Shown here piece after piece: positions 8,779-63,916 of a DNA stretch of 64,000 nucleotides. This DNA comes from Candidatus Nanopelagicales bacterium. Lineage in GTDB: Bacteria > Actinomycetota > Actinomycetes > S36-B12 > UBA5976. Under the pieces are notes generated by a model. That model did not search any database. It was not told where the DNA came from and saw only the letters and a list, made by a program, of their open reading frames with translations. The translations under genes were made by a program, and so were the position numbers. The DNA lies in the NCBI GenBank assembly GCA_049428425.1, contig JBMTAF010000001.1, forward strand, positions 3,464 to 67,463. Direction: 5' to 3'. Numbering within the stretch: position 1 is the first letter of the stretch; every line of letters starts with the position of its first letter.

Positions 8779-10596
8779 GTGCCAACAGCTAAGAAGTCGA
8801 GTCCGAAAAAGTCTGCCGCGAAGTCCAAGTCCAGCGCTAAGCCCGCTGCTAAGAAGCCTGCTGCCAAGAAGCCAGCGGCTAAGAAATCCTCGACCAAGAA
8901 ACCAGCTGCCAAAAAGACGGCCACCAAGAAGAGTCAACCTAAGAAGCCTGCGGCGAAACCTAAATTGTCTGCCGCGGAACTAAAGAAGCGACAAAAAGCG
9001 CAAGCGGCAGCTGCTGCGGCTGAAAAACAGCGCAAAGCGGAGAAGGCTGCTCGGGAAAAGGCAGCAATTGCTGCGAAGAAAGAGCGCGAACGAGCCGCTG
9101 CACAATTAAAGAAAGACCGAGAGAAAGCGAAGCGAGAAGCTGAGGTTGCCAGGCAAAAAGCAGCAGCATTAAAGGCAAAAGAAAAAGCAGCAGCACAAAA
9201 GGCTAAAGAAAAAGCTGCTGAAGCAACCCGTAAAGAAAAAGAAAAACTAGCATTACAAAAGCAGAAGGAGCGCGAAGCGATCGCGCTGGCCAAGCAGAAA
9301 GAAAAAGAGCAAAAGCTTGCCGAGATTGCACGCAAGAAGGCTGAAATGCAGGCACTTCGCGATGCTGGAAAAAAGCCTTCGGCGATTCCGGCTTCCGTAA
9401 AGGCTGTGCTGGGCGAAGATGGCGAACTGCTTGAAGAAATTGAACCAATCCTTAAGCGCGGCAAGCGTGGCAAGGGTGACGAAGATGATGATGAGATTGA
9501 TCTAGAAGAGCTAGCTAACCTAGAGAAAGAACTCGAAACTGAGATTGCCGAAGAGATCGCTGAAGTTGCCGATGACAACGAACCGGCTAAAGCTGGAAAA
9601 AAGAAGACTGATGATGATTCTGAAGTCTTCACAATTTCAGATGTCGATGAATCAGACGAGCCAGTTCAAACTGTAACAGTTGCAGGCGCTACGGCAGATC
9701 CGGTTAAAGACTACCTAAAGCAGATCGGAAAAGTTCCGTTGCTAAATGCGGAGCAGGAAGTAGAGCTGGCAAAGCGAATTGAAGCGGGACTATTTGCTGA
9801 AGAAATTTTGGCAACTCAGAAGATTAAGAAGACATCTGAACGGCAAGATTTGCAATGGATTGCTCGCGATGGTCAGCGGGCTAAGACCCACTTGCTAGAA
9901 GCTAACTTACGTCTGGTGGTTTCATTGGCAAAGCGATACACCGGCCGAGGAATGCTCTTCTTGGATCTAATTCAAGAAGGAAACTTGGGTCTAATCCGTG
10001 CGGTTGAGAAATTTGACTACACCAAGGGATACAAGTTCTCCACTTACGCTACCTGGTGGATTCGCCAGGCAATCACGAGAGCGATGGCAGACCAGGCGCG
10101 AACTATTCGTATTCCAGTTCATATGGTGGAAGTAATTAATAAGCTAGCGCGAGTTCAGCGCCAGATGTTGCAAGATCTTGGCCGAGAGCCGACCCCAGAA
10201 GAGTTGGCTCGAGAACTTGATATGACGCCAGAAAAAGTTGTTGAAGTTCAAAAGTATGGCCGCGAACCAATCTCGCTGCACACCCCACTTGGCGAAGAGG
10301 GCGATTCGGAATTTGGCGACTTGATCGAGGATTCTGAAGCGATCGTTCCATCAGATGCGGTCTCATTCACACTACTGCAGGAGCAGTTGGAATCAGTGCT
10401 GATGACGCTAAGCGAGCGGGAAGCTGGTGTGGTTCGTATGCGGTTTGGCTTAACCGATGGTCAGCCAAAGACGCTTGATGAAATTGGCAAGGTTTATGGC
10501 GTAACGCGTGAGCGAATCAGGCAGATAGAAAGCAAAACCATGTCAAAACTTCGCCACCCATCGAGATCACAGGTATTGCGCGATTACTTAGATTAA
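8779..10596 (+). CDS. sigA: Principal RNA polymerase sigma factor (HrdB/SigA type) with long Lys/Ala/Glu-rich N-terminal extension
   Basis: Region 1.2 [11 protein letters not shown], region 2 [18 protein letters not shown], region 4.2 [23 protein letters not shown] at 8779 lies 5 nt after GGAG; the ORF track starts at 8731. Confidence 0.9.
8806..8965 (+). repeat. Imperfect in-frame tandem repeats encoding (A/S/T)AKKP pentapeptides
   Basis: Reiterated gct-aag-aag-cc(t/a)-gc(t/g) units: [32 protein letters not shown]. Confidence 0.8.
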
Positions 10597-26313: not shown

Positions 26314-27058
26314 CAGCCGGAAGATTCTGCACTAACAGATAGATTGCAACACTAGTTACAATCAACGCAAAGATTCGCTGCAGTGTTTTAGCGTTTAATT
26401 TGGTCGCTAAAGGGGATAGCAGCGTCGAAGCAGCTATTGCGGCAATAGTAAACAGCGCAATTTCGAATGCGGGTATTTCAGTCCAATAATTAAAACGAAG
26501 CAAGAAAGCAATCACCGAATTTCCTGTAATCGCAACCAGTGAAGTTCCAACTGCGGTTTTCGTGGGCACTTTAAGAAACAAAACTAATGCTGGAACGATC
26601 AGAAAGCCGCCACCGATACCAAGCAGGCCAGTTAATACCCCGACGCCAGTTGCAGCTGCTACGACGGCGGACCAATTTGGTTTATCAGAAGTCGAATCCT
26701 TTACCTCTCGACAGCACATTGCATATGCTGAACTAAACATCAGCAGCGCAAAGATAGTTAGCAGTAGTTCGTCAGGGATGAATCTGAGCAGCCAGGTTCC
26801 AAAGAAGGTGCCTAGTAAACCTAGTGCTGAGAAAATCAGTCCTATCTTTATTTTGATTTGACCTGATCTTCTTCGACGCAACACACCTGCTATGGCTGCA
26901 GATCCCACGATAATTGTTGAGCTGGTTGTTGCAGCGGTGGCAGATAGACCTAATGCCGCAACTAATCCAGGCACTGCCAGAATCGCACCACCGGCGCCAA
27001 CCAGACCCAATACTGCGCCAACAATTACGCCGAGCAGTAAACCAAACAAAATGGTCAT
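26303..27058 (-). CDS. TauE/SafE family sulfite exporter
   Basis: 251 aa, 7-8 TM, Gly-rich helices ([26 protein letters not shown]) typical of TauE/SafE. Confidence 0.85.
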
Positions 27059-27061
27059 TTA

Positions 27062-27391
27062 TTAAGCAACCTGCGGATTGCCAGAATCTGCAACTATTGG
27101 CAGCCCTGCCGCATGCCAGGCTTTCATCCCACCTTCTAGATTCAAGATGTTCATCCCGGTAGGCGACAGTGCATCACATACTTGCCCTGATCGATTGCCA
27201 GATCGACAGATGAAAATGATGGGTTTATCTGTCTTTAATTTCTCTAAACTGAATTCACTTAGTGAATTCAGTTCAACGCCAGCAATATGGCCGGCATCCC
27301 ATTCATTCTTCTCGCGAACATCAACGCCATACGCTGTGCCAGCTTCCAGCATTTTTATAGCTTCTGTTGGTGAGATTAGATTCATTTTCAC
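27062..27391 (-). CDS. Single-domain rhodanese sulfurtransferase
   Basis: Active-site loop CRSGNRSG, 109 aa. Confidence 0.85.
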   Translation of the reverse strand: MKMNLISPTEAIKMLEAGTAYGVDVREKNEWDAGHIAGVELNSLSEFSLEKLKTDKPIIFICRSGNRSGQVCDALSPTGMNILNLEGGMKAWHAAGLPIVADSGNPQVA

Positions 27392-28797
27392 TACGCCAAT
27401 GCTTTTACGTCTGACGGTGCAACTGGTCCGGCATCAGCAGCGCCGGCAACTAGTACTAATTTATCCACAGATAGCGCCTTTTCGTAAGGTTCATTAATCA
27501 GCACCACAGAGAATCCAGCATTTTCCAGGATGCTGGCAGCAATCGCGGCACGATAGGCACCGGCACAGTGAACCCAAATCGTCTTATCTATTGGTAGCTC
27601 TGAAAGTCTGGCCTGCAGTTCATGTAGCGGAATGTGCGAACTGCCAGCGATGTGTGAAGCTTCTCGTTCGCTATTTCTTCTAACATCTAGAACTAAAATA
27701 TCTGCATTATCAATAATCTCTGGTACATCACTAAATTTGACCAATTTAGTTTCCTTTAAGTTTTCCATTTTTGCAATATCACCCACAAAACTACCGCTTG
27801 GGCGATCAATTCCAATTCTCACCAATTCGCGTTGTGCTAGTGCGATTTCATCAGGCTGATCGGAAATCAGAATCAATTCACTCTCGTAAGGGAATAACCA
27901 GCCTAGGTAGGTTGCAAAAGATCCAGTAACACCAAAATTAATTGTGCCTGGCAGGTGCCCGGCAGCCCAAGAATCTTTATTACGAAGGTCAACCACCCAG
28001 TTATTGTTAGAAATAGCTGTTAGTAATTCAGCGGTGCTCATTCGACGCAGTTCAGATAGATCAATTGGACCTGGTCCGGCATGGTTTGCAGGTCCCATAT
28101 GCTTGTAGTAAGCAGGAAATGCATCTAGACCAGCAAGCGTTTCACTCACGAAACGCTCAACCGTCATCAGGAGCGCTGGGTTTAGCCGCTTCTCATCACC
28201 AATAGTTGAAGAGGTGCCAGAGGTTGATGTCGCTGCGCAGAATGAGCCAAAGCCATGCGTTGGATAGATTGGCGTTTGGTCACTTAGTAATTCAACAATG
28301 CGGTGAGCTGATCCGTGTTGTAGTTTGGCTAGTTCAGCTGCGTGATCTGGACCTAGTAAGTCAGGCCTGCCAGTAGACCCATGAAGTAATGAACCGCCCG
28401 TAAAGATTCCTTGGTAGTTTCCATTTCCATCAGCTAGCAGGTAAGACAGATGGGTAAAGGTGTGACCAGGGGTGTGGATCGCTTTAATACCAAAAGTTCC
28501 AATGCTGAATTCATCCAAATCTGAAGCTGCGACTCGCTCGAACGAAACTGGATCAGCTGCACTAGTAATGTAATTTGCGCCAAAATTACGGGCGAGAACT
28601 AAGCCGCCACTGACATAATCATTATGCATATGCGTCTCAACCACCGCACCTAATTCCAAATGGTTATCAGCTAGAAGTTTTTCGACGCGATCAATATCGC
28701 GTTGCGGGTCGACTACTAGCGCAGTTTTTCCATCGTGGGCGATATAGCCGCGATCGCCTAGGGTAGGGGTATCAATACTGATTACGTTTAGAGACAT
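27391..28797 (-). CDS. MBL-fold hydrolase fused to rhodanese domains (persulfide dioxygenase-sulfurtransferase, CstB/Blh-like)
   Basis: N-terminal metallo-beta-lactamase motif THMHNDYVSGG, and two C-terminal rhodanese-like modules, the last with active-site HCAGAYR. Confidence 0.8.
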   Translation of the reverse strand: MSLNVISIDTPTLGDRGYIAHDGKTALVVDPQRDIDRVEKLLADNHLELGAVVETHMHNDYVSGGLVLARNFGANYITSAADPVSFERVAASDLDEFSIGTFGIKAIHTPGHTFTHLSYLLADGNGNYQGIFTGGSLLHGSTGRPDLLGPDHAAELAKLQHGSAHRIVELLSDQTPIYPTHGFGSFCAATSTSGTSSTIGDEKRLNPALLMTVERFVSETLAGLDAFPAYYKHMGPANHAGPGPIDLSELRRMSTAELLTAISNNNWVVDLRNKDSWAAGHLPGTINFGVTGSFATYLGWLFPYESELILISDQPDEIALAQRELVRIGIDRPSGSFVGDIAKMENLKETKLVKFSDVPEIIDNADILVLDVRRNSEREASHIAGSSHIPLHELQARLSELPIDKTIWVHCAGAYRAAIAASILENAGFSVVLINEPYEKALSVDKLVLVAGAADAGPVAPSDVKALA

Positions 28798-28824
28798 TTT
28801 GATCCTTTCTTGCTGAACCCTAGC

Positions 28825-28840
28825 ATACCCCCAGGGGTAT
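28825..28840. promoter_or_regulatory. CsoR/CstR-type operator palindrome ATACCCC-CA-GGGGTAT in the divergent promoter region
   Basis: 7-bp perfect inverted arms around a 2-bp centre. It is the only such element in the 76-bp gap between the two sulfur operons. A TATACT -10-like hexamer lies 4 bp downstream (28845-28850). Confidence 0.6.
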
Positions 28841-28873
28841 CTGCTATACTAAGCCGAGTCGAATTGGGGAAAA

Positions 28874-29362
28874 ATGCCAACTTGTTTTGCCGCGCTGAGT
28901 CAATGGCGTTTCAAGAATTGGGTAGTTGCTGCCGCAAGCAGCATTGCCACAGTGGTGATTATCGGTATTCCAACCGCCATGATTGCTAACCCAATTTTCG
29001 GCCGAGCCGTTGCTGTCACTGATTGGTCTTGGCCAGTGCTAATCGCGACTGCCATCTTGGCTGGATTATTGATTGGAAGTTACGTTGCGATAGATCCAAC
29101 GGCGACCGGCGAGCGTGAACTGAAGTTTGGCACAGCTGGTGGAATTCTTGGTTTTCTCGCCGTTGGCTGTCCAGTGTGTAACAAATTGGTTCTGATTGCG
29201 TTAGGAAGCTCTGGCGCAATGACTTATTTCGCTCCAGTCCAACCATTTTTAGGCATAGCGGGGATAGCTTTTCTGATGTATGCCCTTCGCACCAGACTCC
29301 AAAACCAAGCCGGATGCAAATTGCCAACTCAGAATCAAAAAATCAAAGCAACAACAGAATAG
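28874..29362 (+). CDS. Four-TM membrane protein with intramembrane CPVC motif
   Basis: Hydrophobicity pattern suggests 4 helices, with GFLAVGCPVCNKLVLIALG in helix 3. First gene of the operon that also encodes thioredoxin. Confidence 0.55.
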   Translation: MPTCFAALSQWRFKNWVVAAASSIATVVIIGIPTAMIANPIFGRAVAVTDWSWPVLIATAILAGLLIGSYVAIDPTATGERELKFGTAGGILGFLAVGCPVCNKLVLIALGSSGAMTYFAPVQPFLGIAGIAFLMYALRTRLQNQAGCKLPTQNQKIKATTE

Positions 29363-29369
29363 GAAACTC

Positions 29370-29738
29370 ATGGCTACTCTAGAACTAACAGCAGCAAACT
29401 TTGAAGATACGGTTACCAAAGACGGGATCACTCTGGTTGATTTTTGGGCTGAATGGTGCGGTCCTTGCCGAATGTTTGGTCCGATTTTTGAAGCAGCTTC
29501 AGAGCAGCATCCAGACATCACATTTGGCAAGGTAGATACTGAAGCCGAGCAGGGTTTAGCTGCTGCGGCAAACATAACATCAATTCCAACCCTAATGGCT
29601 TTCCGAGATGGCATTTTGGTCTTTGCTCAACCTGGAGCTCTGCCAGCAGCGTCACTTCAAAGTTTAATTGATGGTGTCAAAGCACTTGATATGGATGAGA
29701 TCAGAAAAGAAATTGCTCAGGAGCAATCGAATGGCTAA
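29370..29738 (+). CDS. trxA: Thioredoxin
   Basis: WAEWCGPCRMFGP active site, 122 aa. ATG at 29370 is preferred over the 29280 start, which overlaps the upstream gene. Confidence 0.9.
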   Translation: MATLELTAANFEDTVTKDGITLVDFWAEWCGPCRMFGPIFEAASEQHPDITFGKVDTEAEQGLAAAANITSIPTLMAFRDGILVFAQPGALPAASLQSLIDGVKALDMDEIRKEIAQEQSNG

Positions 29739-30042
29739 GTCAAGAATTGCAAATCAAAATCAAGAAATTGACAGTTACACTCTTCAAGACGAAGTTCAAC
29801 TAAAAGACATAATCAAACGAATTAATCGAGCCCATGGACAATTGGGAGCGGTAACTAGGATGCTTGAAGAAGGTAAAGATTGTGAAGCGGTGATTACTCA
29901 AATTGCTGCGGTTAGTAAAGCGATCAATTCTGCAGCATTTATGTTGATTTCATCCAGCCTCAAGGAATGCATGATTGAAGGCGAGCGAGATACCGAAGAG
30001 GTCTCTGCCAAATTGCAGAAGTTATTTTTAAGTTTAGCCTAA
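29731..30042 (+). CDS. CsoR/RcnR-family repressor, CstR-like (non-metal, persulfide-sensing type)
   Basis: RINRAHGQLGAVTRMLEEGKDC...KEC. The two Cys are 29 residues apart, and the position of the CsoR Cu-ligand His (C+25) is Ser. The start overlaps the trxA stop (ATGGCTAA). Confidence 0.75.
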   Translation: MAKSRIANQNQEIDSYTLQDEVQLKDIIKRINRAHGQLGAVTRMLEEGKDCEAVITQIAAVSKAINSAAFMLISSSLKECMIEGERDTEEVSAKLQKLFLSLA

Positions 30043-30054
30043 TTAAGGAGAGAG

Positions 30055-30447
30055 ATGCGAAAATACATAGCTTTAATTGTTACGCTGATGCTGGCTCTTG
30101 CTGGTTGCTCGAATTCAGCTAACAGTTCAGTCACTGATTTAAGTGTCGCTGACTTCGCAAACACAATAGCTACCGAAGATGTAGTTATTTTGGATGTGCG
30201 AACACCAGGTGAATTCACCACGGGACACATTGCAAATGCAATCAATATCGATGCTGAAAGCGGTAGCTTTGCTAGCCAAATTGAATCTTTAGACAAAACA
30301 AAAACGTATGCTGTCTATTGTCGTAGCGGTAATCGATCAGGTAACGCAACCAAAATCATGGCAGAGGCTGGGTTTACCAGTTTGTACAACATGTTGGGCG
30401 GAACTATTGATTGGACAAATTCCGGCTTCCCACTAACAACTAACTAA
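30055..30447 (+). CDS. Rhodanese-domain lipoprotein
   Basis: Lipobox LALAGC after a signal peptide, and rhodanese active-site loop CRSGNRSG. Confidence 0.8.
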   Translation: MRKYIALIVTLMLALAGCSNSANSSVTDLSVADFANTIATEDVVILDVRTPGEFTTGHIANAINIDAESGSFASQIESLDKTKTYAVYCRSGNRSGNATKIMAEAGFTSLYNMLGGTIDWTNSGFPLTTN

Positions 30448-49766: not shown

Positions 49767-50834
49767 TTAGTTAAGGCGTGGACCTTCTTCAGTAGCATCA
49801 AAGAAATGCATTGAATTTGGCTTAACCTTGATTGTGTCACCACGCTTAATATTAGAATCAGATCCAACTCGCACAGTGATATCTTTCTTACCATCATCAT
49901 TGATGGTGCCGTAGAGGAATTCGTCTGAACCAAGTTCTTCGACCAAATTAACAGTCATGGAAATTCCGTCATTTGCTACTTCTAAATGTTCTGGTCGAAC
50001 TCCAACCACAACCTTGTTGCTGGAAGCTTTGGCAGCAGCGGCAGCATCCATGCTAACTTCGTAACCACCAATCTTCACAGTGGTGCCGCTTAGATTTCCT
50101 TCAAGTAGGTTCATCGCAGGGGAACCAATGAATCCAGCAACAAATGCATTTGCTGGCCGGTCATATAGTGCCCGTGGGGTGTCAACTTGTTGCAGCACGC
50201 CAAACTTGAGCACCGCAACGCGGTCACCCATAGTCATAGCTTCAACCTGATCGTGTGTCACATAAATTGTGGTAACGCCAAGTCGTTTTTGTAATGCAGC
50301 AATCTGAGTTCTGGTTTGCACGCGCAACTTCGCATCCAAGTTGGAAAGCGGTTCATCCATCAAGAAGACCTGAGGTTCGCGAACAATTGCTCGTCCCATC
50401 GCAACACGCTGACGTTGACCACCAGAAAGTGCTTTTGGCTTTCGGTCTAGATATTCCTCTAGATCCAACAGTTTTGCTGCTTCCTCAACGCGACGTCGAA
50501 TCTCGTCCTTTGCAACACCAGCAATTTGCAGCGCAAAGCCCATGTTCGCAGCAACTGTCATATGCGGATAAAGGGCGTAGTTCTGAAACACCATCGCAAT
50601 GTCTCGATCCTTTGGCGCAACATCAGTGACATCACGATCGCCGATCATGATCGCGCCCTGATCGCATGGCTCGAGGCCTGCGATCATGCGAAGCGCAGTG
50701 GATTTTCCGCAGCCCGATGGGCCAACTAGCACTAGGAACTCGCCGTCACTAACGGTGAGATCAAGTGATGAAACAGCAGGACGCGCACCGGGGGTGTAAA
50801 TCCGAGATGCGCCTTGAAATACAACAGGTGCCAT
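49767..50834 (-). CDS. Sugar ABC transporter ATP-binding protein (MsiK/UgpC/MalK type), orphan ATPase
   Basis: Walker A GPSGCGKST, signature LSGGQRQRVA, Walker B FLMDEPLSNLD, and a C-terminal MalK-like regulatory domain. No permease or binding-protein genes adjacent. Confidence 0.85.
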   Translation of the reverse strand: MAPVVFQGASRIYTPGARPAVSSLDLTVSDGEFLVLVGPSGCGKSTALRMIAGLEPCDQGAIMIGDRDVTDVAPKDRDIAMVFQNYALYPHMTVAANMGFALQIAGVAKDEIRRRVEEAAKLLDLEEYLDRKPKALSGGQRQRVAMGRAIVREPQVFLMDEPLSNLDAKLRVQTRTQIAALQKRLGVTTIYVTHDQVEAMTMGDRVAVLKFGVLQQVDTPRALYDRPANAFVAGFIGSPAMNLLEGNLSGTTVKIGGYEVSMDAAAAAKASSNKVVVGVRPEHLEVANDGISMTVNLVEELGSDEFLYGTINDDGKKDITVRVGSDSNIKRGDTIKVKPNSMHFFDATEEGPRLN

Positions 50835-51578: not shown

Positions 51579-52769
51579 ATGGCAGCACCACAGAATTACC
51601 TAGCAGTTATCAAAGTCGTCGGCGTAGGTGGCGGTGGCGTCAATGCGGTTAACCGCATGATTGATGTCGGACTTAAAGGTGTGGAGTTTGTGGCAATTAA
51701 TACTGATGCCCAAGCGCTGCTGATGAGTGATGCTGATGTAAAGCTAGATATCGGGCGTGATCTAACTCGCGGATTGGGTGCTGGCGCTGATCCTTCAATT
51801 GGTCGTCAAGCTGCGGAAGACCATGAAGAAGAGCTACGGGATGTGCTGCGCGGTGCCGACATGGTCTTTGTTACTGCAGGCGAAGGTGGCGGCACTGGAA
51901 CTGGTGGCGCACCAGTGGTCGCTCGTATTGCTCGAGAGTTAGGTGCACTAACTGTTGGTGTGGTAACTCGGCCGTTTGCATTTGAAGGTAGACGACGTGC
52001 GCAGGCTGCTGAAGATGGCATAGAAGAACTAAGGGCAGAAGTAGATACGTTAATTGTTATTCCAAATGATCGTTTGTTGCAGTTAAGCAACAAAGCGATC
52101 AGTGTGGTTGAAGCGTTCAAGCATGCTGATCAAGTGCTGCTACATGGCGTTTCTGGAATAACTGATTTAATTACAACCCCAGGCTTAATTAATCTTGATT
52201 TTGCAGATGTCCGAAGTGTGATGAAAGATGCCGGCGCTGCGCTGATGGGTATTGGTGCCGCTCGCGGTGAGAACCGAGCGCTAGCTGCAGCAGAAATGGC
52301 GGTTAGATCACCGTTGCTGGAGGCAGGCATTGACGGCGCCCGTGGAATTTTGATGAGTGTTGCCGGTGGTAGTGATTTGGGACTCTTTGAGATTAACGAT
52401 GCTGCCAGATTAGTAGCTGAAGCTGGACATCCAGATGCCACCATTATTTTTGGTGCGGTAATTGATGATTCGTTAGGTGATGAAGTTCGGGTAACTGTGA
52501 TTGCCGCTGGTTTTGAGAATGGCCTGCCAGCTGCTCGTCCAGTGAAGCGTCCAGAACCTACTGCAATTACGCCAACCACCGTTTCGCCGGCACTTGATGA
52601 TGCCACCGCGATGCCAGAATTCGAAAATTCCAGCAACGTAGATGATCAAACTGGTGAATTGGACCTACCGCTGGCAGTTGGCGAATCATCAGGAAGTCGG
52701 CCTCGAGTAGTTTTTGATTCAATGGACTCCATTGAAGACGAACTAGATGTACCTGACTTTCTGAAATAG
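51579..52769 (+). CDS. ftsZ: Cell division protein FtsZ
   Basis: [20 protein letters not shown] and the tubulin signature [18 protein letters not shown] is upstream. Confidence 0.97.
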
Positions 52770-59380: not shown

Positions 59381-60305
59381 GGAATTTGTAGTGGATTCGA
59401 GCTTCGCTGGAGAGAGGCTAGATGTTGCTATTTCAGCAATGCTAGAAATCTCCAGAACCGCAGCCGCAGAGTTAATTGATCAATCTTGCGTCAAAGTAAA
59501 TAATCGGGATGCGGCCAGAAGCTACCGGCTAAACCCGGATGATTTGATTTTAGTTACTGATCGCCAGGCGTCTGATGCTGAACCACAGTTAATTGCTGCC
59601 TTCCCTGATATCGAAATTCCAATTCTGTATGCGGATGACGATTTAGTAGTGATCAATAAGCCGGCAGGCGTAGCAGCCCATGCTTCAGTAGGTTGGAACG
59701 GTCCAGATGTTCGTCATCGCCTCACGCAACAAGGCCATCGCATTTCAACGAGCGGGGCTGCAGAACGACAGGGAATTGTGCAACGCCTTGACGTTGGTAC
59801 CAGCGGCGTTATGGTTGTTGCGAAGAGCGAGTTGGCTTACAGTGATTTGAAGCGGCAGTTCAAAGAGCGAGAAGTCACCAAGATCTATCTGACTATTGTT
59901 CAAGGCTATCCAGATCCGGCATCTGGCACGATCGATGCACCGATTGGCCGACACCCAGGTGCCGATTATCGATTCGCCGTTATTGCTGGCGGTCGACCCA
60001 GCATTACCCATTACGACACGTTAGAGATGTATCGGTATGCATCACTTTTACGAGTTGAGCTAGAGACTGGTCGAACTCACCAAATTCGCGTACATATGTC
60101 TGCGATCCGGCACCCATGCGTTGGCGACCTCACTTATGGCGCAGATCCAACCCTGGCTGCAAAATTGGGATTGAAGCGGCAATGGCTGCATGCTTCAGAA
60201 CTCGGCTTCACCCACCCGATGACCGGGGAGCGAATGAGATTCTCGGCCCCGTTGGCTGCGGATCTGGCCAAAGCACAACAAATCTTGGCAGAAGTTCTAA
60301 ATTGA
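59373..60305 (+). CDS. rluD: RluA-family 23S rRNA pseudouridine synthase (RluD-like)
   Basis: S4-like N-terminus, catalytic HRLDVGTSGVMVVAK, and GRTHQIRVH. ATG at 59373 overlaps the lspA stop (ATGCCTAA). Confidence 0.9.
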   Translation: MPKEFVVDSSFAGERLDVAISAMLEISRTAAAELIDQSCVKVNNRDAARSYRLNPDDLILVTDRQASDAEPQLIAAFPDIEIPILYADDDLVVINKPAGVAAHASVGWNGPDVRHRLTQQGHRISTSGAAERQGIVQRLDVGTSGVMVVAKSELAYSDLKRQFKEREVTKIYLTIVQGYPDPASGTIDAPIGRHPGADYRFAVIAGGRPSITHYDTLEMYRYASLLRVELETGRTHQIRVHMSAIRHPCVGDLTYGADPTLAAKLGLKRQWLHASELGFTHPMTGERMRFSAPLAADLAKAQQILAEVLN

Positions 60306-60376
60306 GTTAGCGTCAATCCTTAATTTCTGGAGCAGAGTGATTAGGGTTGCAAGATCGAGGCGAGATAGGAAAAATC

Positions 60377-63300
60377 ATGAGTGACTCATTTGTGCACTTG
60401 CATGTGCACACTGAGTACTCGATGCTTGACGGTGCTGCTCGATTAGATGACTTAACGGCCGAAGTAGCGCGGCAGCAAATGCCAGCAATTGCGATTACCG
60501 ATCATGGCTATCTGTTTGGCGCATATGAGTTTTACAAGAAATGTAAAGCAGTGGGAGTAAACCCAATCATTGGCTTGGAGGGTTATTACGCTCCCCAGGG
60601 AAGAGCGAACCGAACCCCGTTTGAATTTGGTGCAATTGGGGTTGAAGACGTAGCAGAAGGGCTAGCCAGAGGAAGTAGTGCATATACCCATATCACGTTA
60701 CTTAGCGAAACCACTGCTGGAATGCACAATTTATTTAGATTATCTTCGCTAGCAAGTATTGAGGGTTATTACTACAAACCACGAATGGATTTTGAACTGC
60801 TAGAAAGATACGCAACCGGATTGATTGCAACTACGGGATGTCCCAGCAGTGAAGTTAACCGATGGCTCCAAGCTGGAAAATACGACAAAGCAAAGGTAAC
60901 CGCCGCTATATTACAATAAATTTTTGGTAAAGATAACTTCTACTGTGAGTTAATGGATCATGGTATTGAAATAGAACGCAGACATCGGGACGATTTGCTG
61001 CGATTAGCAAAAGAGCTAGCAATTCCACTTTTAGCGACAAATGACACGCATTATGTCCATGCAGCTGATGCAGATGCACATGAAGCGCTGCTTTGTATTG
61101 GCACTAGAACGACGATGGCTGATCCAAATCGGTTCAAGTTTGACGCTCGAGATTTTTATATTAAATCTGCCGCCGAGATGCGAGCGGTGTGGGGAGACTA
61201 TCCAGAAGCGTTAAGCAACACCTTAGCAATAGCCGAACGTTGCGCGGTTGAGTTTAATGAAGGTGCGAATTTACTCCCTCGATTCCCAGTTCCCGCAGGT
61301 CACACTGAAGAAACTTGGCTAATTCAAGAAGTTGAGAAAGGGCTAATTCAACGTTTCAAAGGTAAGCCAACTCAACAGCATCTTGATCAAGCAAAGTATG
61401 AGATTCAAGTAGTCAGTCAAATGGGATTCCCTGGCTATTTCTTGGTAGTAGCAGATTTAGTACGACATGCAAAGGCTAATTCGATTCGAGTCGGTCCTGG
61501 TCGAGGATCAGCTGCTGGATCGGTTATTTCTTGGGCGCTAGGGATTACCGAACTAGATCCGATTAAGCACGGCTTATTGTTCGAGCGCTTTCTAAACCCA
61601 GATCGAATCTCAATGCCCGATATCGATATCGATTTCGATGAACGTCGACGATCCGAAATGATTCGTTATGCGACCGACACCTACGGTGATGATCGAGTTG
61701 CTCAGATTGTTACCTACGGCACGATTAAGGCAAAAGCCGCGGTAAAAGACTCAGCTCGAGTACTGGGATATCCATATGCAGTTTCTGATCGAATTACAAA
61801 AGTGATGCCGCCACCAATTATGGGTAAAGATGTGTCACTTAAGGAAATGTTTGATTCAAGCCACTCGCGCTATCAAGAGTCTGCTGAGTTTAGAAGTTTG
61901 TATGAAGTAGACCCAGACGTTACCAAAGTCGTCGATACCGCTAGGGGATTTGAAGGGCTCAAGCGCCAACCTGGAGTTCACGCGGCAGGTGTGATCTTAA
62001 GTCGCGAACCATTACTTGATGTAATCCCAATCTGGCGTCGAGATGATGGATCGATCATCACACAGTTTGATATGGGTGCATGCGAATCTCTTGGATTGTT
62101 AAAAATGGATTTCTTAGGTCTACGAAATCTGACGGTGCTTGATGAATGCCTGGCAAATATTAAGCGTAACCGCAATGAGACGATCGTGCTAGAAGAGTTG
62201 GAGTTAAACGACGCAAAAACCTTTGAATTGCTTTCCAAAGGTGAGACTTTAGGTGTTTTCCAACTTGATGGCGGGCCGATGCGTGCTTTGCTGAAATTGC
62301 TGCAGCCAGATTCATTTGATGATATCTCGGCCGTTATCGCGCTTTATCGACCTGGCCCGATGGGCGCTAACGCTCACGTCGATTACGCGAATCGAAAAAA
62401 TGGCAGAGAGCCAAACAAGCCAATTCACCCTGAGCTAGCAGAGCCACTAGCTGAGATTTTGGATGAAACTTATGGCTTGATTGTTTACCAGGAGCAAGTT
62501 ATGGCGATAGCCCAGAAACTTGCTGGCTACACCTTGGGTACTGCCGATTTGCTCCGCCGCGCCATGGGCAAAAAACAAAAAGATAAACTGGAAAAAGAAT
62601 TTGAGCCGTTTAAAAATGGCATGATAGAGCGTGGCTTTAGTGAAGCTGCAATTTTAAAGCTGTGGGAAGTGCTAGTTCCGTTTAGCGACTATGCATTTAA
62701 TAAGGCGCATTCGGCCGGATATGGCTTGGTGTCATATTGGACGGCATACTTGAAAGCCAATTATCCGGCGGAATACATGGCAGCACTCTTAACTAGCGTT
62801 AAAGACGATAAAGACAAGATGGCAATTTATTTGAATGAAGCCAGAAGAATGGGCGTGAGCGTTCTACCGCCTGATGTAAATGCTTCTTTTGTTGACTTCA
62901 CTACGGTTGGCGAAGCGGTCCGCTTTGGCTTGTCGGCTGTGCGAAATGTCGGCGAAGGAGTAGTTGAAAGCATCGTTCGCACTCGAGAAACTAAAGGAAA
63001 CTTCACCTCGTTTCAAGATTTTCTAGATAAAGTTGAGATTACCGTTTGTAATAAGCGGGTGTTGGAATCATTGATTAAGGCTGGCGCTTTCGACTCATTG
63101 AATCACGCCCGCAGAGCATTACTTGCAATTCACATAGATGCGATTGACGCGGTAACTGAAACCAAAAGAGCGGAAGCGGTCGGACAATTCGACCTCTTTG
63201 GTGGAATTAGTGAACCAGTGGCTGGACATCAAGTAGTTAATATTCCAGATCTGCCGGAGTGGGATAAGACCACTTTGCTCAATTATGAGCGAGAGATGCT

Positions 63301-63916
63301 TGGCCTTTATGTCAGTGATCATCCGTTATTCGGTCTTGAACACGTGATCAGTGCGAATAGCGATGTTTCAATAGCGGATATCCAGAATGATGAGCTACCC
63401 CACGAGCGAGCTGTGTTGGTTGCCGGCATGATCTCTGCAATTCAGCGCAAAGTAACAAAACAAGGTGCTTCATGGGCAATCGTTACTCTGGAATCATTAG
63501 ATGGCGTAATTGATGTAATGGTTTTCCCGCAGACTTATTCGCAGTATGGTCAACTATTAACTCAAGATGCGATATTGCAGATTCGTGGCAGATTAGATAA
63601 ACGCGAAGAGGATGCACCAAAATTTGTTGCTGTTGAAATTATGGTGCCACAATTCCAGGAAATGCCGATTGGAGCTTTGAAACTTTATGTTCCAGCGCAA
63701 CGTTTGGTGCCACCGTTAGTGGAAAAACTTAAAGCCGTGCTAGCCAGCCATGTTGGCACCACCGAAGTCCATCTGGAAGTGATTCACCCTGACCACACCA
63801 CGGCGTTGCGACTTGATGCAAATTTAAGTGTTTCAGTGAGTCCTGGACTTTATAGCGATCTGAAACAACTACTTGGCGCAAACTGCCTAACGCCACCACG
63901 AACGATGGCTAGTTAA
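60377..63916 (+). pseudogene. dnaE: DNA polymerase III alpha subunit DnaE, one reading frame interrupted by a single in-frame TAA at 60917-60919 (ORF pieces 60377-60919 and 60920/60953-63916)
   Basis: PHP motif HLHVHTEYSMLDG, then ...AAILQ-TAA-IFGKDNFYCELMDHG... is continuous in the same frame. Palm motifs GPGRGSAAGS and MPDIDIDF. The OB-fold C-terminus is intact. Confidence 0.8.

Follow-up and report, generated by a model that had tools for sequence, protein, structure and literature searches.

An in-frame TAA in the dnaE gene of a freshwater Nanopelagicales actinobacterium is probably a consensus error

The dnaE gene in the window (the whole 64 kb stretch of DNA analysed here) carries a lone in-frame stop codon, TAA. 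On the best reading, the gene is of the ordinary DnaE1 kind and one of its bases is suspect; it is neither split nor intein-bearing, and neither an established pseudogene nor a site of recoding. In particular, the TAA, together with a neighbouring ATA, is probably a local sequencing, assembly or amplification error in this one consensus. The allele is private, looks unselected, is clustered with a second radical change and sits at a spot of extreme composition where another assembly breaks. From this we infer a technical cause rather than a mutation. DnaE1 is established as the essential replicase of Actinobacteria, so most cells of a growing population cannot be carriers of a dnaE nonsense allele.

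The course of events that we propose is short. The organism would be a freshwater Nanopelagicales actinobacterium with a normal, single and intact dnaE of the DnaE1 type. Two substitutions, G>T (GAA>TAA, codon 181) and A>T (AAA>ATA, codon 178), would then have entered a single consensus sequence, the error most probably arising where the region is richest in AT and presumably most poorly covered. The step from AT-richness through low coverage to error is plausible and is put forward as such.

The features of the gene itself are as follows.

60377..63916, + strand: dnaE, DnaE1-type DNA polymerase III alpha subunit; 1179 codons, one internal TAA
60377..60919, + strand: N-terminal fragment of 180 aa with seven of the nine PHP zinc ligands (H9, H11, D18, H43, E68, H105, C155)
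60917..60919, + strand: in-frame TAA at codon 181; GAA (Glu) in six of the six same-species assemblies covering the site
60953..63916, + strand: 987-aa ORF past the stop, starting at the first in-frame ATG; without the IFGKDNFYCEL strand, with D223, H225 and all polymerase domains

Translation of 60377-63916 gives 1179 sense codons, a lone internal stop (...KVTAAILQ*IFGKDNFYCELMDHG...) and a natural stop at the end, and the two open reading frames 60347..60919 and 60953..63916 share a common frame. The NCBIfam model NF004226 matches the fragments consecutively: the N fragment scores 178.9 bits (profile positions 4-162) and the C fragment 1301.3 bits (166-1143), the latter alone exceeding the curated cut-off of 1002 bits. 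Pfam domains follow the order PHP, DNA_pol3_alpha, finger, HHH_6 and OB, and both fragments match an intact orthologue (P0121), in which the PHP match covers residues 7-195. Since the N fragment spans PHP profile positions 1-145 of 164, the stop lies within the PHP domain. The original prediction, which placed a TAA in frame within the PHP domain of dnaE, is thus borne out by translation, frame check and Pfam. Its further statement that nothing is inserted and no frame is changed holds as well, given a gap-free DNA alignment and 1179 codons against orthologues of 1179 aa; the same comparison leaves no extra sequence at the break, and an intein or split dnaE was rejected.

All nine PHP metal ligands are present (H9, H11, D18, H43, E68, H105, C155, D223 and H225), and they are identical to the aligned residues in the proofreading PHP domain of Mycobacterium tuberculosis DnaE1. 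Beyond the counterparts of M. tuberculosis D23, E73, H107 and D226, the ligands are assigned as is usual for the family. The four M. tuberculosis residues are named as ligands in PMC5636811. The M. tuberculosis enzyme (PDB 5LEW / 7PU7) is collinear with the window protein over the 477 residues compared (E ~1e-164), has the same domain order (PHP, pol III alpha, finger, HHH, OB) and shares the conserved PHP zinc ligands. The difference is the TAA, which in the window copy takes the place of a conserved Glu/Asp 42 residues ahead of D223/H225; the stop column aligns to Glu in M. tuberculosis DnaE1.

The surroundings are typically actinobacterial. A division and cell-wall cluster is followed by ftsZ, sepF, ileS, a dksA-like gene, lspA, rluD and then dnaE, and the lspA-rluD-dnaE neighbourhood is kept in every same-species contig. 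The GC content of the window is about 47%.

The evidence that carries our reading comes from other assemblies of the same species. Six independent assemblies cover the site (ENA ERZ27315679, ERZ27315687, ERZ27315707, ERZ922568 and ERZ922574/SRR3139707, and the NCBI MAG GCA_049426505.1). They are 99.4-99.7% identical to the window there, without gaps, and 6/6 have A at 60909 (AAA, Lys178) and G at 60917 (GAA, Glu181). The ancestral codon 181 is therefore GAA, turned into TAA by G>T at 60917, and the single uninterrupted reading frame that marks a DnaE1 gene, broken in the window copy, is present in all six. The original prediction had observed that the TAA is one substitution away from GAA, and GAA is what these assemblies have. 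The wider set of same-species contigs comes from ERZ27315679, ERZ27315687, ERZ27315707, ERZ922568, ERZ922574, ERZ922557 and ERZ922644 at ENA, from the NCBI MAGs GCA_049426505.1, GCA_049454055.1 and GCA_049421045.1, and from Logan assemblies of several runs. Most of these contigs are 99.1-99.97% identical to the window and gap-free; in two, identity is 98.7-99.0% and a TauE-like gene contains one compensated 2-nt indel pair. ERZ922568, ERZ922574, ERZ922557 and ERZ922644 belong to project PRJNA309119, which is labelled crustacean metagenome.

Protein databases agree. A search with full-length DnaE returned a 90%-identity cluster of 29 sequences, whose representative, P0121 (1179 aa), is practically identical to the window protein and whose named members carry the label Candidatus Nanopelagicales or freshwater metagenome. 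One database protein, P0253, is encoded on two contigs of different runs; the window DnaE departs from it at two residues only, by K178I and E181stop. Further orthologues are 92, 89, 87 and 80% identical, and those of other Nanopelagicales about 68%. Every listed member of the 90% cluster that spans the site, and the 80-92% orthologues, have Lys, Gln or Asn at 178 and Glu or Asp at 181. A query of 350 aa had wrongly suggested an unsampled lineage (matches of 325-607 aa at 68% identity or less), an idea that was dropped once the full-length query found the species.

The same column was followed further out. Among JGI metagenome contigs, a codon-degenerate pattern found four relatives with GAG, GAG, GAG and GAT at codon 181, and an exact 43-mer in which both variable bases were given as N had no match there. 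The same-species assemblies and these relatives carry Glu or Asp at this codon (GAA, GAG, GAT), which answers the question, raised with the original prediction, of which residue orthologues hold in this column. Over 79 genome loci among the matches listed, from Actinomycetota and beyond, the column is Asp in 49, Glu in 25 and another residue in 5, so that 74/79 have an acidic residue (Asp or Glu); a stop occurs in 0/79 of these listed loci. Exact look-ups of truncated products of 180, 190 and 987 aa found none on record among 153 billion gene positions. On these sequence comparisons, the stop is private to this assembly.

The stop does not stand alone, as a second private change and an unusual local composition accompany it.

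60909, + strand: A>T, the other substitution private to the window at this spot (AAA Lys178 > ATA Ile), 8 nt 5' of the nonsense base; Lys, Gln or Asn in relatives
60907..60936, no strand: 30-mer with the lowest GC content in the 64 kb window (16.7%, taking the ancestral bases); holds both private changes

The original prediction overlooked both the second radical change at 60909 and how extremely AT-rich the spot is. The next-lowest 30-mer has a GC content of 20%, and the mean is 47%. Private sites were counted over the 38,468 positions (~38.5 kb) covered by at least three independent samples. No comparators were found for the first half of the window, and the strain comparison leaves out positions 1-23,600. 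Within the counted positions, 505 sites are variable and 23 are private to the window. The 23 comprise 19 synonymous changes, two mild replacements (K>T in rsmH, S>A in rluD) and the pair K178I and E181stop. By our arithmetic, the chance that a random pair of the 23 sites would both be among the four nonsynonymous ones is 6/253, or ~0.024. The ordinary private variants bear the signature of purifying selection; the K178I/E181stop pair does not.

In dnaE there are four private changes, and the two outside the pair are synonymous. Both lie 3' of the stop, where they are the only private changes in 998 codons, and there are no indels; this upholds the view of the original prediction that the rest of the gene is intact and argues against any decay of dnaE. 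An established (old) pseudogene was rejected, given no further lesions, no indels and no relaxed selection past the stop.

Another assembly also breaks at this spot. Contig JBMSYH010000005.1, from the unrelated MAG GCA_049426505.1, ends at 60920, 3 nt past the site, and carries the sense allele; the next dnaE piece of that MAG begins only at 62452. We roughly estimate at <1% the probability that a contig ends no more than a dozen bases from a given site, taking the genome to be ~1.3 Mb in ~90 or more contigs. Contig ends in the other assemblies showed no general match to low GC, and for this reason we treat the end at 60920 as merely suggestive; it could be a coincidence. Two sources within the DNA itself were tried for the changes and rejected: a templated origin of both, as no similar 23-mer occurs elsewhere in the window at three mismatches or fewer, and a quasi-palindrome origin, as the changes leave the local quasi-palindrome no better than before.

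Consensus error has precedents. Assembly errors often lie behind 'pseudogenes' with an internal stop, and they vary with coverage and with the assembler used (Cooley & Wright 2024, PMC11017572). The window dnaE is like these spurious pseudogenes in having one stop in an essential and intact gene, in that near-identical genomes disagree, and in its spot of extreme composition. It differs in that such errors are tied to generally poor assemblies with many of them, whereas dnaE is the sole disrupted gene in 64 kb. What speaks against an error is that the window is otherwise clean, with no indels relative to at least 10 other assemblies over 40 kb and with other private variants that look natural; because of this cleanness, two wrong bases are themselves unusual.

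This cleanness also counts somewhat towards the main rival, a fresh mutation in the sampled DNA. That is, the pair could be a real, very recent, clustered two-hit mutation in a single cell, in a small clone or in a minor variant picked by the assembler, non-viable or short-lived and unscreened by selection. Two substitutions 8 nt apart on one haplotype can come from a single error-prone synthesis event, and such an event could have given both changes here. The otherwise intact gene, with its two synonymous private changes 3' of the stop, would fit an allele of negligible age, and the contig break at 60920 in another sample could reflect heterogeneity in the natural population. Yet the contig that ends there has the sense allele, no contig with T at both positions was found, and the allele is absent from the six same-species assemblies and from all database proteins. 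Moreover, a lethal allele should not attain consensus frequency in a metagenome or a culture. On balance we consider a fresh mutation unlikely, though it is the rival to be taken most seriously. Of the four origins that the original prediction left open, error and a very recent private nonsense allele are thus the favoured ones; readthrough as a property of the organism is argued against by what follows.

A tolerated allele would require either near-cognate readthrough of UAA or a working enzyme formed by the 180-aa N fragment and a product re-initiated at the ATG at 60953. The frame is perfectly kept past the stop, the nine PHP ligands and all polymerase domains are present, and the first in-frame ATG lies 34 nt 3' of the TAA. 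Against this, the stop is conserved in no relative, with a sense codon in the six same-species assemblies (GAA in 6/6) and in all relatives (GAG or GAT in the four from JGI), and TAA is a normal terminator here. No stimulatory structure was found either: the segment 60900-61000 has a minimum free energy of -12 kcal/mol, compared with -16.4 for shuffles (z = +1.40), its flanks are unchanged in the GAA strains, and the 64 kb window holds no tRNA gene, suppressor or otherwise. Readthrough of UAA, as entertained in the original prediction, accordingly finds no backing. An A_AAT_TTT run was rejected as a recoding signal, since it is out of the zero frame and nothing calls for a shift of frame. Reassignment of TAA is excluded, as TAA terminates 17 of the 44 long ORFs, among them gene ends common to other assemblies (e.g. 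54172 and 58871), and no other gene of the window has an internal stop. Re-initiation, for its part, would remove the conserved IFGKDNFYCEL strand and leave the trinuclear zinc site divided into 7 + 2 ligands (D223 and H225 on the second piece). Single PHP ligand mutants of M. tuberculosis DnaE1 lose exonuclease activity and stability (PMC5636811). The sequence from stop to ATG is identical in sense-codon strains, so there is no adaptation for re-initiation. A real and tolerated allele is for these reasons very improbable, and the specific picture of a TAA in living cells, with an essential single-copy replicase sustained by low-level readthrough or by a two-piece enzyme, is if anything harder still to credit. 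It is also barely credible that the gene is a dispensable pseudogene whose role in replication was taken over by a second alpha subunit (another dnaE, dnaE2 or polC) elsewhere. The context lspA-rluD-dnaE is conserved and the gene is intact in every other strain, selection is not relaxed (the two private dnaE changes outside the pair being synonymous), and nothing in the 64 kb window supports a second alpha subunit. Among NCBIfam models, the replicative DnaE model scores 1301 bits, well above the 569 bits of the error-prone polymerase model. Given that the gene shows no decay and that the species normally has dnaE intact, a second alpha subunit is unnecessary as an explanation.

Known cases of interrupted replisome genes differ from this one. 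In cyanobacteria, DnaE is split within the polymerase core, DnaE-n and DnaE-c being separate genes with intein halves. The likeness is that the alpha subunit is encoded as two ORFs; unlike the cyanobacterial ones, however, the ORFs of the window adjoin in one frame with no inserted sequence, and the break falls inside the PHP barrel. Programmed recoding sites, such as the -1 frameshift in dnaX that yields tau and gamma, or bacterial readthrough sites, are conserved across strains and species and have slippery or structured signals. The window dnaE resembles them in having a translational discontinuity inside a replisome gene, but its stop occurs in a single assembly, involves no shift of frame and is followed by no RNA structure.

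With consensus error as the preferred reading, the result is of curation value only: dnaE should be treated here as an intact gene with a suspect base and not as a pseudogene or recoding site. Comparing a lone internal stop with same-species metagenomic contigs quickly tells private, unselected changes from conserved features. If the TAA were instead true of living cells, it would bear on how little DnaE1 a slow-growing cell needs, or on whether the PHP domain tolerates splitting, and it would describe a streamlined freshwater actinobacterium able to survive on trace or split DnaE1.

Finally, a stop scan of both strands (single stops with at least 100 open codons on either side) brought up dnaE as the one interrupted gene of the 64 kb window. 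Checked against gene calls, its remaining six cases are ordinary gene ends or antisense frames. Small overlapping ORFs at 28.9-30.4 kb were considered as further broken genes and rejected; they are separate, intact genes for a membrane protein, a thioredoxin, a CsoR-like repressor and a rhodanese.

An independent metagenome-assembled genome of the same species (GCA_049426505.1) carries the sense allele, GAA, at the site of the in-frame TAA in dnaE (60917-60919), and its contig JBMSYH010000005.1 (L082) terminates at window position 60920 (position 10544 of the contig), 3 nt past the stop position at 60917. The next dnaE piece of this genome (L083) begins only at window position 62452. The contig end at 60920 could reflect a local problem, of coverage or of heterogeneity, that is common to both assemblies; it could instead be a chance coincidence. 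The local sequence is unusual in its composition: with the ancestral bases restored, TAAATTACAAGAAATTTTTGGTAAAGATAA (60907-60936) is the 30-mer richest in AT across the 64 kb window, and it encodes a conserved protein block despite a GC content of 16.7%.

Contig ends coincide near ftsZ. Two contigs of the species from separate projects, assembled with unlike k-mer sizes (L085 and L087; k119 in ERZ27315687 and k127 in ERZ922574), start at the identical window coordinate, 51684, and just downstream, at 51737-51893 in ftsZ, SNPs between strains form a cluster. Given this shared start just upstream of the cluster, we regard 51684 as a recurrent assembly break point. Several remoter actinobacterial DnaE proteins in the databases (P0092, P0102, P0024, P0042 and P0003), encoded on long contigs, are truncated with out-of-frame tails; disrupted dnaE predictions are thus no rarity among public assemblies. 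For example, the break falls at an identical position, near residue 323, in both P0092 and P0102, whose contigs measure 147 and 190 kb, and P0024, at 532 aa, comes from a Klenkia terrae contig of 4.85 Mb.

Strain differences along the window are grouped in short blocks (60433-60538, 59919-59975, 50055-50142 and 27979-27988), which look like recombination tracts between co-existing strains that are ~99.5% identical. The clusters private to the window are all synonymous except for an S-to-A change at 59919, and one haplotype at the start of dnaE is common to L081 and L086 only. Two contigs (L102 and L107) are clearly more divergent than the others, with an overall identity to the window of 98.7-99.0%. 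Relative to the window, they carry two 2-nt indels, one a deletion and the other an insertion, spaced 6 nt apart at 26657-26664 within a TauE-like gene on the minus strand; the pair is either a frameshift with its compensation or an allele that has diverged.

This freshwater Nanopelagicales species is present in runs labelled crustacean metagenome, namely in PRJNA309119 (L084, L087, L095 and L100) and in SRR30952015, SRR30952023 and SRR30952024 (L088, L099 and L109). The strain nearest to the window is found in SRR30952024 (3 mismatches over 8.5 kb). The project of this run may lie near the source of the window, but it yielded no contig covering dnaE.

When homologues were sought with a 350-aa query, all proteins listed were 325-607 aa long, and the 100%-identical orthologue of 1179 aa was absent. 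Match lists seem to be limited by how long a protein is compared with the query, and this can give a well-sampled lineage a novel look.

A further feature lies elsewhere in the window:

27062-30447, compact group of sulfur and redox genes

The group comprises two rhodanese-domain genes, a TauE-like exporter, a thioredoxin, a CsoR-like metal-sensing repressor and a secreted rhodanese. In a check limited to ORF intactness, its overlapping small ORFs proved to be intact genes.
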